The notes below the pieces were generated by a model, which was not told the origin of the DNA, searched no databases, and saw only the letters and a program-made list of their open reading frames with translations. From assembly GCA_965230485.1 (NCBI GenBank), contig CBDDLA010000001.1, positions 3,183,010-3,247,009 of the forward strand: a stretch of DNA of 64,000 nt. The letters are read 5' to 3'. This DNA is from Putridiphycobacter sp. (GTDB lineage Bacteria > Bacteroidota > Bacteroidia > Flavobacteriales_D > Crocinitomicaceae). Of this stretch, positions 29,320 to 33,052 are shown piece after piece; within the stretch, counting starts at the first letter, position 1, and every line of letters begins with the position of its first letter. The position numbers and the translations under genes were made by a program.

Positions 29320-29475
29320 ATGAATCAAAAAACGAAAGACTTTGTCATTATCTCACTAGGAGTCGTTGCTCTTCTCATCCTTATTAAACTTATTTTTAAA
29401 GATTGGGGTTCAGCTTTAGTCACAGCATTAGTTTTTCTTATCGGTTACATAATAGGAAGGAAAAATTCTAATTAG
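29320..29475 (+). CDS. Small 51-aa two-helix membrane protein (missed by the ORF track)
   Basis: MNQKTKDFVIISLGVVALLILIKLIFKDWGSALVTALVFLIGYIIGRKNSN*. ATG lies 1 nt after the alaS stop. Confidence 0.7.
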   Translation: MNQKTKDFVIISLGVVALLILIKLIFKDWGSALVTALVFLIGYIIGRKNSN

Positions 29476-29493: not shown

Positions 29494-30987
29494 TTAAAAC
29501 CGATACGCTAAACCAAATCCAATTGAAAAAGTACTAACAGATCTTTTTGCATAGGTACTTTCATAATAATTTTGAAAGCTTGGGATATATCTCATATTAG
29601 CTGATAAATAGACGCTATTAAACAGATTATATTTAAGATTTCCACCCACTGAATAAACGAACGTTGTTTGTTTAAAAATACCACTATTTTCAATAGGGAG
29701 CACATTGTTATTTAGAAAGTAAGTACCGCTAGATTTTAGAAGGTAGTTAATTTGAATCCCCAAATCTACTCCGTATATCCATTTATTTCTTTCAATTTGA
29801 CATCCAAAATGAAAAGGTAATTGAAGGTACTGACTGCTGGTAATGCCATAGTAATCCTTTAAGGTTGTTTCCAAAGTACTGTCAATACTATAGGTTGTGT
29901 CGGCTGTTAAAAAAGTAGTATTATAGCTCTGTTGTTCTATGCCAACACCAATGGCAGCTGTTAATCCATTTGAAGAAAGGTATTGACCATATATTTGACC
30001 GAAAAAACCTAGTTTTTCATCATGCAGCTTATACAATGGTTGAGTAAACTCAGGATTTGTGTAATTAGCGTTATTAATATTTGGTCCACCCTTAAGTCCA
30101 ATCATCCATTGACCTTCTGGTTTTCCTGTTTCTATCTCAATTTTAGTGTCCGTTTTTGAAGAATCTATTGTTTCATCCTTTTTAAATGATACGAAAGAGG
30201 TATCCAGGATTTCGCTGTTTTCAGTCTTACTTAAAGATTGATTATCAGGTGCAGTAGCTTCTTTATTTAGATTGCTGGAGCTGGTATTACTATTTGTCAG
30301 CTTTGAATTTACCTCATTTTGATATTCATTATAATTGGCAGTTTTTGATACAGCTGAAATTACCGACTCTTTAACAGCATTAGTTTCAGTACGCGTTTTA
30401 TCTTCAGATATTACTACTTCCTTGTGATTTTTTGTTTCTGCAACTTCTTTTTTAACTTCATCTTCGACTTGAACAGTTACTTTGTTTGCTTCATCAATAG
30501 GCTCTATAATTTCAGTTTTAGCGATAGCCTGTTCTAAAATAGGTTTTTGATTTTCCTTTCTTTCTAATTTTTGAAAAGGTTGATGTAGTTTTTTGTCAAT
30601 TTCTTTGGCACTAATTTTATAATCTGACCGACGTTTGTATTCAGGACTTGTATCAATAATATGTTTAATTGATGTATTAGATATTTGCTCATTATTCTGT
30701 GTAAAGGCCGTTTCTTGAATTTGTGATTGATAAGTGTTAATAATAGTGTTTTCAAAGTCAGTTCTTTTTTGATACGCAGCTAAATCAGTTTTTTTTGACA
30801 TATTGACTGTTGTCAATACAGCGCCGATTACTGTTACTAATAGCAAACCAGATCCAACTAACCAAAAATTGCCACCTCCACTTGTTTTCGACAAAACGTT
30901 ATTTCTAACACTAGTAGGTGCCTTGGCGGATCCCATCCCAATCGTAGACTTAAATAATTCGTCGATATTTTTAAATTCCTTGCTCAT
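29494..30987 (-). CDS. Putative dual-membrane-spanning anti-sigma factor (cytoplasmic N-domain, TM, low-complexity linker, OM beta-barrel)
   Basis: N-terminal NIDELFK...APTSV motif, one TM (FWLVGSGLLLVTVIGAVL), about 230 aa K/E/T/N/S-rich linker, and a C-terminal barrel ending GFGLAYRF. Directly downstream of an ECF sigma. Confidence 0.75.
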   Translation of the reverse strand: MSKEFKNIDELFKSTIGMGSAKAPTSVRNNVLSKTSGGGNFWLVGSGLLLVTVIGAVLTTVNMSKKTDLAAYQKRTDFENTIINTYQSQIQETAFTQNNEQISNTSIKHIIDTSPEYKRRSDYKISAKEIDKKLHQPFQKLERKENQKPILEQAIAKTEIIEPIDEANKVTVQVEDEVKKEVAETKNHKEVVISEDKTRTETNAVKESVISAVSKTANYNEYQNEVNSKLTNSNTSSSNLNKEATAPDNQSLSKTENSEILDTSFVSFKKDETIDSSKTDTKIEIETGKPEGQWMIGLKGGPNINNANYTNPEFTQPLYKLHDEKLGFFGQIYGQYLSSNGLTAAIGVGIEQQSYNTTFLTADTTYSIDSTLETTLKDYYGITSSQYLQLPFHFGCQIERNKWIYGVDLGIQINYLLKSSGTYFLNNNVLPIENSGIFKQTTFVYSVGGNLKYNLFNSVYLSANMRYIPSFQNYYESTYAKRSVSTFSIGFGLAYRF

Positions 30988-30988
30988 C

Positions 30989-31537
30989 TTATCGTTTTAT
31001 GAGTTTCTTCTCCAATAATATATTGGAGATCATTTTTTTTGCCTTGAATAGTTGTGATTTTGATGTATTTTCAGATACATCAAGATGTTCAGCAATTTCT
31101 TTATGCGTTAAGTTTTCAAATACGAATAGATTAAAAATTGTTCTATATCCTATTGGCAAGTCATTCAGAATCGAGATCAGTTCACTCTTAAGATCAGGTG
31201 TATCAACAATTTCAAAATTTTCTAAACTGGTTTCAATATTTTCAAATGCTTTAAAATCTTCTACTAAATCCACTCTTTTATTTTGTCGAATATGATTAAT
31301 CGCTGTATTAATAACTATCCGTTTTATCCAACCACCTAGTTCATATTCAGGGTTAAAACTACTACATTTTTCATGAATTTTAATGAAAGCATCTTGTAAC
31401 ATATCTGAAGCTTCGTCTGTATTCCTGGTATAACGCAAACATGTATTATACATGGCATCACAATACCTGTCGTACACTATTGTAAACGCCGTTTGACTGC
31501 CAGCTATGAATTTTTTTTTTAGTGCTTCGTCTTTCAA
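30989..31537 (-). CDS. ECF RNA polymerase sigma factor
   Basis: Region 2 DMLQDAFIKI..GWIKRIVIN and region 4 LPIGYRTIFNL..HKEIAEHL.VSENTSKSQL. Confidence 0.93.
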   Translation of the reverse strand: MKDEALKKKFIAGSQTAFTIVYDRYCDAMYNTCLRYTRNTDEASDMLQDAFIKIHEKCSSFNPEYELGGWIKRIVINTAINHIRQNKRVDLVEDFKAFENIETSLENFEIVDTPDLKSELISILNDLPIGYRTIFNLFVFENLTHKEIAEHLDVSENTSKSQLFKAKKMISNILLEKKLIKR

Positions 31538-31620
31538 ACTAAATTCAAAAAATACTATTTTATGATTTCTATATAAAGATACACACCATTTATTGATATG
31601 GTTGTCTGAATAGGTGTATA

Positions 31621-32514
31621 TTATTTAATAGACTCAATCCTTAAATCAAATGCAATATCGGTATTAGGAGGAACCAAATCTACTAAACCGGTTTTCCCAT
31701 ATGCTAGTTGAGATGGAATTTCAACAAATGCGTGATCTCCTTCACGAAGTACAGAAAGTCCCTGATGTAAGCCTTCAACAACATTGTCATTTTTAAATTT
31801 AACAGTAAATGGTTGCCCCTTGGAGTAGGAGTTATCATACATACCTGGTTTTTTACCTTTTTTAAACGTGAAGTAATCAAAAGTGATGAGTTGATTTTTT
31901 AGAGGTGTTGCCTTGCTTGAATCTCCTAGCTGGTACTTATACACCACAACACCTTCCTCTAAATATATAGGTTTAATTTTGCTAACAATTTCTATTTTAA
32001 CAATAATATCTGCATTTTGAGGGACTTTTCCTAAATAGCCGTTTTCTCCATAGGCTAATTTTGAAGGGATCATAATTCTTCCTTTATCACCAATATTCAT
32101 TTCTAATAAAGCCTGTTCCCAGCCTTCTAGAAGTTGGCCTACTCCAAGTTTAAGCGGTAATGGTCTTCCAGCCTCACGGTTATGATCATATACTTCTCCA
32201 CTTGCAACCCTTGCTTCGTAGTTTACTAATACAAGGTCATTTTTGGTAATTAATTCTCCTTTATTTCTTTTCTGCCACTCAATCCTCAAACCATCATCTC
32301 TATTCCAAACCATTGGTAGTCCCTGATCGTTTTTCAGAGAATCAGATTTTAAAGGTGTTACTTCCTTTTTTAGATTTATAAAAGCGGAGTCTACCGCTGA
32401 AAGTGCATCCGAATTTTTATTGTTCGACACTTTATTTTTTGTTTCATCAACACCGCTTACTTCACAAGACAATGAGGCGATACTTAGACTTAATAAGAGA
32501 AATATTCTATTCAT
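31621..32514 (-). CDS. FKBP-type peptidyl-prolyl isomerase lipoprotein with two FKBP domains
   Basis: Lipobox SLSC, GQLLEGWEQAL..IPSKLAYG and VEGLHQGL..IPSQLAYG. Confidence 0.88.
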   Translation of the reverse strand: MNRIFLLLSLSIASLSCEVSGVDETKNKVSNNKNSDALSAVDSAFINLKKEVTPLKSDSLKNDQGLPMVWNRDDGLRIEWQKRNKGELITKNDLVLVNYEARVASGEVYDHNREAGRPLPLKLGVGQLLEGWEQALLEMNIGDKGRIMIPSKLAYGENGYLGKVPQNADIIVKIEIVSKIKPIYLEEGVVVYKYQLGDSSKATPLKNQLITFDYFTFKKGKKPGMYDNSYSKGQPFTVKFKNDNVVEGLHQGLSVLREGDHAFVEIPSQLAYGKTGLVDLVPPNTDIAFDLRIESIK

Positions 32515-33052
32515 TAGGTGGTTTAATATTTACAAGTTCAATGTCGTATACCACCGTCTCAAGCGGAGGGATTTCATCTAAATCTCCAATGAGTCCATGG
32601 GCAAGGTGACTAGGTAAAATAAACTTGGCTTTTTCTCCTATAGCCAATAATTGAACCCCTTCATGGATGCCGCTCTCAATGTCAGACTTTTCGATCATAA
32701 ATGATTCCGGATTCCCTCGTTTGGAGGTATAGCAGATTTTATTATCCAATAAGCTTACTGTAAAATTAACCGATACTATATCGCCTACCACAGGTTTTTT
32801 ATTATTTGTTGAATCATATATGAAATATCTTAGACCTGTTCCCGTTTGAGTAATTTTCCAGTCAGGTCGTCGACTCAAAAAGGCCTCAATCGCTTCATTC
32901 TCTTCAGCTGAAAAAACAGCATTCATTTCAATAGATTTTTCCTGATCCCATTCAGGTAATTGCAAAGGCTTTTTATCGTCAGCCATTTGGCAAGATGATA
33001 TTAAAACAAATGGGAGAATTAAAATAAATAATAATCTAGAGTGCATTGTCAA
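32507..33052 (-). CDS. FKBP-type PPIase lipoprotein, GldI-like
   Basis: Lipobox ISSC, TGLRY, GIHEGVQLL and PSHLAHG. The DHH-gldI-FKBP order is typical of Flavobacteriales. Confidence 0.8.
   Translation of the reverse strand: MTMHSRLLFILILPFVLISSCQMADDKKPLQLPEWDQEKSIEMNAVFSAEENEAIEAFLSRRPDWKITQTGTGLRYFIYDSTNNKKPVVGDIVSVNFTVSLLDNKICYTSKRGNPESFMIEKSDIESGIHEGVQLLAIGEKAKFILPSHLAHGLIGDLDEIPPLETVVYDIELVNIKPPNE

Follow-up and report, generated by a model that had tools for sequence, protein, structure and literature searches.

A probable Dma-type anti-sigma factor predicted to span both membranes, and its ECF sigma factor, in the Crocinitomicaceae

Does a marine flavobacterial lineage possess anti-sigma factors that hold a sigma factor at the inner membrane and reach with the same polypeptide into the outer membrane, as described for the Dma (dual-membrane-spanning anti-sigma) proteins of gut Bacteroides? 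The question is raised by two adjacent genes of Putridiphycobacter sp. (assembly GCA_965230485.1, contig CBDDLA010000001.1), which encode an extracytoplasmic function (ECF) sigma factor and a putative anti-sigma factor and were analyzed computationally within a stretch of 64,000 nucleotides (positions 3,183,010 to 3,247,009; referred to as the window). Dma proteins consist of an N-terminal sigma-binding domain, one transmembrane (TM) helix, a long disordered tether and a C-terminal beta-barrel, and they adjoin an ECF21 sigma factor (PMC10927553, PMC13088901). We consider it likely that the window pair is a Dma-type envelope-spanning anti-sigma factor with its ECF sigma factor, which belongs to a lineage of the Crocinitomicaceae and is not the orthologue of Dma1.

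The sigma factor matches the Pfam families Sigma70_r2 (52.8 bits) and Sigma70_r4_2 (54.2 bits) and the NCBIfam model sigma70-ECF (94.6 bits, cut-off 42.9); its score against the Bacteroidetes-type model TIGR02985 (97 bits) is under the cut-off of 126. A preliminary description of this DNA, made from the sequence alone, had located the sigma factor gene one nucleotide upstream of a 497-amino-acid (aa) open reading frame, and this gap, like all other coordinates and elements described there, was found in place: a single base (position 30988) lies between the stop codon of the sigma factor gene and the ATG of the anti-sigma gene. Because the two reading frames are offset by one base, a read-through fusion of both proteins is impossible. 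In 17 out of 17 related loci, all from Crocinitomicaceae, the anti-sigma gene directly follows a sigma factor orthologue, with a gap of 1 nucleotide (nt) or an overlap. Conserved in all of these loci and in hundreds of database relatives, this layout is not due to chance.

The anti-sigma protein starts with 40 hydrophilic residues (MSKEFKNIDELFK...APTSV), for which AlphaFold2, run twice with alignments of 7 and 30 sequences and with agreeing results, predicts two short helices (residues 8-16 and 25-35) in both runs. They are followed by one hydrophobic segment (top Kyte-Doolittle 19-mer 43-61, score 2.2), modelled as a helix of residues 41 to 61/62 with a predicted local distance difference test (pLDDT) value of about 75. 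From about residue 67 to 275 pLDDT is below 50 and secondary structure is absent from the models; this region is charged and rich in K, E, T, S and N, with S, T, N and Q accounting for about 35-50%. The N-domain of about 40 residues, the single TM helix and the low-complexity linker of about 230 residues recognized in the preliminary description were thus all recovered. The sole NCBIfam match of the protein, to the TrlF ATPase (20.9 bits, cut-off 350), falls within the linker and was rejected as compositional.

Conservation is distributed very unevenly over these parts. Among 13 non-redundant pairs, mean identity amounts to 59% for the sigma factor, 53% for the N-domain (residues 1-37), 23% for the TM helix, 14% for the linker and 29% for the barrel, so that the N-domain is the best-conserved region of the anti-sigma protein; it also co-varies with the sigma factor (r=0.78), and its motif KNIDxLF[KR]S..(A/V)P..VK..ID is common to hundreds of relatives. 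The linker keeps a length of 187-281 aa among orthologues despite its low identity. Contact of the N-domain with the sigma factor and a spacer role of the linker would be expected to leave just such a pattern, a conserved N-domain together with a linker maintained in length but not in sequence. Residues 1-40 of Dma1 suffice for binding of its sigma factor Das1 (PMC10927553), and by analogy the N-domain of the window protein would bind the adjacent sigma factor.

Alternatively, the protein might be an ordinary outer-membrane protein with a cleaved, extended leader similar to those of autotransporters, in which case the sigma factor would be regulated otherwise, or the two halves of the protein would be constitutively separated. 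Conserved extended leaders do exist in some outer-membrane proteins, C-terminal fragments of Dma1 are found in outer-membrane vesicles (OMVs; PMC10927553), and the charges around the TM helix of the window protein do not favour a cytoplasmic N-terminus. Yet this explanation deserves very little credence. We found neither a lipobox in the anti-sigma protein nor an Ala-X-Ala-type site after the helix, and the hydrophobic segment is unlike a signal peptide because it is preceded by a conserved n-region of 40 residues; as far as can be judged from sequence, the earlier claim that a cleavable signal peptide is missing therefore stands. In addition, the presumed leader would be the best-conserved part of the protein and the part that co-varies with the sigma factor, and the two genes adjoin each other, with a 1-nt gap or an overlap, at each of the 17 loci. 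Over 130 relatives, an average of 4.3 lysine and arginine residues precede the TM helix and 1.3 follow it; the family as a whole thus obeys the positive-inside rule, which supports a cytoplasmic N-terminus. Sigma factors of the same clade are moreover paired with proteins that share this N-terminal layout but end in CHU_C or thioredoxin domains instead of a barrel, and full-length Dma1 carrying both of its tags was detected in membranes (PMC10927553).

The C-terminal part of the predicted envelope-spanning protein was modelled as all-beta (residues 292-496, pLDDT about 90-97 in the 30-sequence model) with eight strands (293-310, 327-337, 342-366, 372-400, 403-420, 441-456, 459-468 and 481-496). 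A Foldseek search against the PDB returned only integral outer-membrane barrels at probability 1.0, with the 8-stranded OmpA domain as top match (TM-score 0.70 normalised to the target), followed by Ail, OmpX, OmpW, NspA and OprF-N. The turns on the side where the tether enters comprise 2-3 residues (SNG, NK, NS) and the opposite loops are long, hydrophobic and polar faces alternate in most strands, and the protein ends with the beta-signal F-S-I-G-F-G-L-A-Y-R-F, whose positions -1, -3, -5, -7 and -9 are hydrophobic (F, Y, L, F, I). In 113 of 130 relatives the protein terminates in F or L, and the orthologues P0002, P0010 and P0037 match PF13568 (OMP_b-brl_2) above the cut-off over nearly the whole model. 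The barrel ending in F that was proposed earlier is therefore in agreement with the structural model, and within it the loops L1 (EFxQxLxKLHxEKLG) and L4 (NYYxxxYAKR), both predicted to face outward, are the best-conserved parts.

One might argue that this beta-rich domain is a soluble periplasmic sensor outside the outer membrane and that the protein is a conventional single-pass anti-sigma factor, given that most ECF anti-sigma factors have periplasmic sensor domains and that the 497-aa protein shows no direct Pfam barrel match. This seems very unlikely to us in view of the top Foldseek matches, all of them integral 8-stranded outer-membrane barrels, the alternation of lipid- and lumen-facing residues, the short periplasmic turns, the beta-signal with its terminal F, and the PF13568 matches of orthologues; for Dma1, the barrel has been located in OMVs experimentally (PMC10927553).

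How closely is the pair related to the Dma systems of Bacteroidales? Dma1 and Das1 of Bacteroides thetaiotaomicron (BT_4721/BT_4720) were represented by a stand-in from a Bacteroidales genome that has NigD. A NigD-anchored search gave this one genome (G127), in which the NigD gene does not adjoin any sigma factor gene, and another of its loci (L042) was used, where a 189-aa sigma factor overlaps a 431-aa protein of the same architecture; the latter has relatives labelled Dysgonomonas and Prevotella, and L042 may belong to the Dma1 group. With hhalign, the N-domains of both families align in register (Prob 86.9%, E 4.2e-6) and the barrels over the whole domain (Prob 95.2%, E 2.5e-8), and the barrels have the loop motif N-x-Y-x-x-x-Y-x-x-K/R in common, which takes the form N-K-Y-R-T-I-Y-S-D-K in L4 of the Bacteroidales protein. 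Dma1 itself is annotated as OMP_b-brl_2 (PMC10927553). In a tree of the 25 ECF sigma factors of this genome, the orthologues of the window sigma factor and the Bacteroidales sigma factor, a clade with 99/97 support unites the window sigma factor and its orthologues, the L042 sigma factor, and all sigma factors of the same genome that are paired with short-N-domain partners. This clade was taken as a proxy for ECF group 21, to which the window sigma factor may belong. All four defining parts, the N-domain as a putative sigma-binding one, and the adjacent ECF gene are thus present, as the preliminary description had suggested, and since N-domain, barrel and sigma factor are each homologous to their Bacteroidales counterparts, the pair can be assigned to the Dma/Das type. 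Within the clade, the window sigma factor forms a sub-lineage of its own. The L042 sigma factor groups with C1:2458609, and in this genome it matches C1:2392264 (169 bits) and C1:2458609 (139 bits) better than the window sigma factor (120 bits), which indicates that the window pair is a distinct lineage and not a one-to-one orthologue of the L042 pair. Taken together, these sequence comparisons support a Dma/Das-type system that represents a separate, Crocinitomicaceae-restricted lineage.

The distribution of the anti-sigma family is consistent with such a restriction. A word-indexed search found only 7 relatives, all in metagenome-assembled genomes (MAGs) of Crocinitomicaceae and two of them with precomputed PF13568 matches, whereas an exhaustive profile search retrieved 500 proteins at E<=1e-3, including 68 at E<=1e-30; the wider family is thus visible only with the latter approach. 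Among the best 150 of the 500 relatives, nearly all have a length of 480-600 aa and the same layout with the TM helix at about residue 45, and named members come from Crocinitomicaceae, Putridiphycobacter and Crocinitomix. Whole-genome searches detected the family in 25 of 121 Crocinitomicaceae genomes, in 10 of 29 genera and in 5 of the 7 genomes of the window's genus; in 301 genomes sampled across the phylum it was found in two, the window's own and one with a weak match (E 8e-6).

The genome harbours about eight pairs whose sigma factors belong to one clade and whose partners have a short N-domain and one TM helix; five of these partners end in barrels, two in CHU_C tails of the type IX secretion system (T9SS) and one in a thioredoxin domain. 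Of the paralogues, the two closest to the window sigma factor (C1:2391300-2392812(-) and C1:3574134-3576033(-)) are each followed by an anti-sigma-like protein that ends in a T9SS type-B CHU_C domain (PF13585; 66.2 and 41.9 bits) and not in a barrel; both partners have a short N-domain and a hydrophobic segment at about residue 45-65, that of the second being below the TM score cut-off. In four further Dma-like pairs (Table 1) the TM helix lies at about residue 40, except for a 516-aa protein, in which it lies at about residue 130; three of the four proteins show weak matches to outer-membrane protein barrel families, and the 516-aa protein shows none. The sigma factors of the CHU_C, barrel and thioredoxin pairs are all contained in the 99/97 clade. 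Hidden Markov models of the N-domain alone and of the barrel alone found no paralogue in this genome, and the full-length profile matches the paralogue C1:1962841, a match to which linker composition may contribute.

An indication of what the sigma factor might control comes from its own upstream region. The predicted ECF-type promoter there corresponds to a motif, AG[AG]CAAC[C/T/G]-N15/16-TGTA, which precedes the sigma factor gene in 14 out of 14 loci at varying distances and occurs once in the window (0.02 occurrences expected). This points to positive autoregulation, as reported for EcfO, whose targets are its own operon and nigD genes for surface lipoproteins and whose partner Reo has been proposed to sense outer-membrane stress (PMC13114119). 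In a genome-wide scan, a position weight matrix (PWM) built from the 14 sites yielded 10 matches of at least 20 bits compared to 1 in the control; the sigma operon itself ranks first, and three matches lie upstream of lipoprotein genes (Table 1). Within the genus, other genomes carry the motif in front of BLAST orthologues of the 153- and 328-aa lipoprotein genes, as well as in front of genes for a lipoprotein family of 130-143 aa. It also precedes a 109-aa gene of genome G370 that resembles C1:3327827, although BLAST at 1e-5 gave no link between the two. A Pfam scan provided no name for the candidate target lipoproteins. Tentatively, these small uncharacterised lipoprotein genes may constitute the regulon of the sigma factor.

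We also noted three tandem paralogous lipoprotein genes (C1:2734169-2739951(-), 596-617 aa), of which the one scanned has a weak CarboxypepD_reg-like match. Two of the three are preceded by AAC-N16-TCGT; the form AGRCAACY-N15/16-TGTA is found at orthologues from two further genomes of this genus. We did not retain these genes in the core regulon, as AAC-N16-TCGT bears more resemblance to the promoter of a paralogous sigma factor.

Several observations weigh against our interpretation. The 497-aa protein has no Pfam match at E<=1, the barrel assignment resting on the model and on orthologues, and hhalign comparison with PF13568 proteins of the same genome was weak (Prob 16%) and was not counted as support. 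With 2 lysine and arginine residues before the TM helix and 4 after it, the window protein breaks the positive-inside rule. The window and L042 sigma factors are not reciprocal best matches, as three other paralogues match the L042 one better, and the likeness to Dma1/Das1 was judged indirectly, from the published description and from L042. With respect to the regulon, counts of the strict motif in five genomes equal those of a reversed-pattern control, so that support for the candidate targets comes from the PWM scan and the recurrence across genomes; in addition, the paralogous sigma factors have the -35 element GGCAACC in common and differ in their -10 elements, and regulon assignments may therefore reflect cross-talk.

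A pair of this architecture could serve the production of OMVs, as in B. thetaiotaomicron, where deletion of Dma1 or Dma2 leads to hypervesiculation (PMC10927553, PMC13088901) and where, as predicted here, the regulon consists of uncharacterised lipoproteins. However, NigD1 is required for Dma1-dependent hypervesiculation, and a search for the NigD_N domain (PF12667) matched the B. thetaiotaomicron control but nothing in this genome. Thus, the NigD1-dependent route to vesiculation cannot operate here, and the OMV phenotype should not be transferred to the window pair. Moreover, the outputs of the class are not conserved, as Reo, the Dma1 orthologue of B. fragilis, affects fitness under oxidative stress and Dma1 mutants show no such change (PMC10927553). 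Vesiculation as the output is therefore unlikely. Of 151 genomes drawn evenly from the phylum, a single one matched NigD_N; judged from these searches, NigD looks largely confined to Bacteroidales rather than ubiquitous among Bacteroidota, as stated in the literature.

Based on the analogy with Dma1/Das1 and Reo/EcfO, from which sigma binding, location in both membranes, proteolytic release and the nature of the signal are derived, a Dma-type window pair might function as follows. The first 40 or so residues of the single-chain anti-sigma factor would hold the sigma factor at the cytoplasmic face of the inner membrane, which one helix would span; the disordered tether of about 230 residues would cross the periplasm, and the 8-stranded barrel would be inserted in the outer membrane, presumably via Sec and the beta-barrel assembly machinery (BAM). 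When the outer membrane or the barrel is damaged or perturbed, the tether would be proteolysed, and intramembrane cleavage would follow; an RseP-like M50 site-2 protease is encoded in the genome. From AGACAACC-N16-TGTA, the freed sigma factor would transcribe its own operon, and a few motif-bearing genes for uncharacterised lipoproteins would probably be transcribed by it as well. It is conceivable, although we regard this extension as rather doubtful, that the pair forms a Dma circuit independent of NigD, which responds through its barrel to a cue at the cell surface and not only to general envelope damage, which drives a small set of lineage-specific lipoproteins from AGRCAACY-N16-TGTA, and which is one of about eight systems of this genome with interchangeable outer modules. 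If so, these systems would represent a modular family of envelope-spanning switches and not a single vesiculation regulator.

Table 1. Features of the sigma/anti-sigma locus, related pairs and promoter motif matches (window positions; genome positions carry the prefix C1)
Feature	Position	Strand	Basis or remark
ECF sigma factor gene, Das-like, 182 aa, TTG start	30989-31537	(-)	Pfam, NCBIfam, synteny, tree
Anti-sigma gene, 497 aa, ATG start	29494-30987	(-)	ORF (open reading frame) list and architecture
Anti-sigma residues 1-40, predicted cytoplasmic sigma-binding N-domain	30868-30987	(-)	Conservation, hhalign, AlphaFold2
Anti-sigma residues 41-62, predicted single inner-membrane TM helix	30802-30867	(-)	Hydropathy, AlphaFold2
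Anti-sigma residues 63-290, predicted disordered periplasmic tether	30118-30801	(-)	AlphaFold2, composition
Anti-sigma residues 291-497, predicted 8-stranded outer-membrane beta-barrel, OMP_b-brl_2 type	29497-30117	(-)	AlphaFold2, Foldseek, Pfam matches of orthologues
Predicted ECF-type autoregulatory promoter, AGACAACC-N16-TGTA	31580-31607	(-)	-35 at 31600-31607, -10 at 31580-31583; 42 nt upstream of sigma start
FKBP-type peptidyl-prolyl isomerases of 297 and 181 aa, both carrying export signals	31621-33052	(-)	Directly upstream of sigma factor gene
Four further Dma-like pairs	C1:2458609-2460379, 2819937-2821761, 1962317-1964514, 949995-952083	(+)	TM helix, linker, C-terminal F or Y
Fifth pair, thioredoxin-like C-terminal domain	C1:3481645-3482875	(+)	
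PWM match, sigma operon itself			31.1 bits, intergenic, top in genome
PWM match, 109-aa lipoprotein	C1:3327827-3328156		26.7 bits, intergenic
PWM match, 328-aa lipoprotein	C1:1517249-1518236		22.2 bits, intergenic
PWM match, 153-aa lipoprotein	C1:803941-804402		21.0 bits, intergenic

The genomic surroundings of the pair are of housekeeping type, with two FKBP isomerases upstream, preceded by a DHH/DHHA1 phosphoesterase, and alaS convergent downstream. The gene order DHH phosphoesterase, two FKBP isomerases, sigma factor, anti-sigma factor, convergent alaS and M23 peptidase is kept in the four loci with gene tables (L001-L004), where the FKBP genes are called upstream of the sigma factor, and the ends of FKBP-like coding regions lie before the sigma factor gene in several more distant loci. 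The FKBP genes do not carry the promoter motif of the sigma factor. A 51-aa open reading frame (29320-29475(+)) encoding a predicted two-helix membrane protein (MNQKTKDFVIISLGVV...) begins 2 nt past the alaS stop, and gene calls of 51 aa occupy the corresponding place before alaS in L001 and L004. A further locus (L016, JBLFXO010000224.1), a 6-kb contig labelled MAG: Arenicella sp., contains a sigma/anti-sigma pair of Crocinitomicaceae type with the same promoter motif; its gammaproteobacterial label is probably a binning error.

Gut Bacteroides provided the definition of the Dma class in 2024, and because Dma proteins have already been reported throughout Bacteroidota (PMC10927553), the locus is an expected relative in a marine family of Flavobacteriales, not a surprising one, and does not overturn current understanding. 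What is new are the conserved predicted promoter, the lipoprotein genes proposed as regulon, the lack of NigD and the multiple modular paralogues, which illustrate how numerous such pairs, with differing outer modules, can be within one genome. Its compact layout of two genes in a family that lacks NigD, its conserved candidate promoter and the short list of candidate target lipoproteins together make it possible to test what Dma systems control without NigD.

With Dma1/Das1 of B. thetaiotaomicron and Reo/EcfO of B. fragilis and Phocaeicola vulgatus, the window pair shares the ECF sigma factor directly upstream (PMC10927553, PMC13114119), the N-domain of about 40 aa, the single TM helix, the long disordered tether and the 8-stranded OMP_b-brl_2 barrel; autoregulation of the operon is a probable further similarity, and the predicted regulon is likewise a handful of uncharacterised lipoproteins. 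It differs from them in the confinement of the family to Crocinitomicaceae, its own sigma factor sub-lineage, the absence of nigD genes and the housekeeping context. Dma2/Das2 (BT_1558/BT_1559) also shows the four-part architecture and an adjacent sigma factor, which falls in the same ECF group as Das1, but Dma2 has been reported only in the genus Bacteroides and has its gene within an operon of three genes, whereas the window operon comprises two genes (PMC13088901). In Dma3 (BT_2778) the sigma factor is fused to the protein's own N-terminus, unlike the separate gene in the window (PMC13088901). Among the paralogous pairs of the same genome, the CHU_C and thioredoxin anti-sigma proteins resemble the window protein in their short N-domain with a DxLF-like motif and one TM helix at about residue 40, and differ from it in their outer module, which is CHU_C or thioredoxin-like instead of a barrel. 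A Pfam scan of the window anti-sigma protein revealed no domain relation to RseA or FecR. In the RseA/sigma-E system of Escherichia coli and the FecR/FecA system, ECF sigma factors are sequestered at the membrane by an anchored protein and released by regulated proteolysis upon events at the outer membrane. The outer-membrane sensor is a separate molecule in both cases, namely unfolded outer-membrane proteins acting via DegS, or the TonB-dependent receptor FecA, whereas in the window pair the outer-membrane part and the anti-sigma factor are predicted to form one polypeptide.

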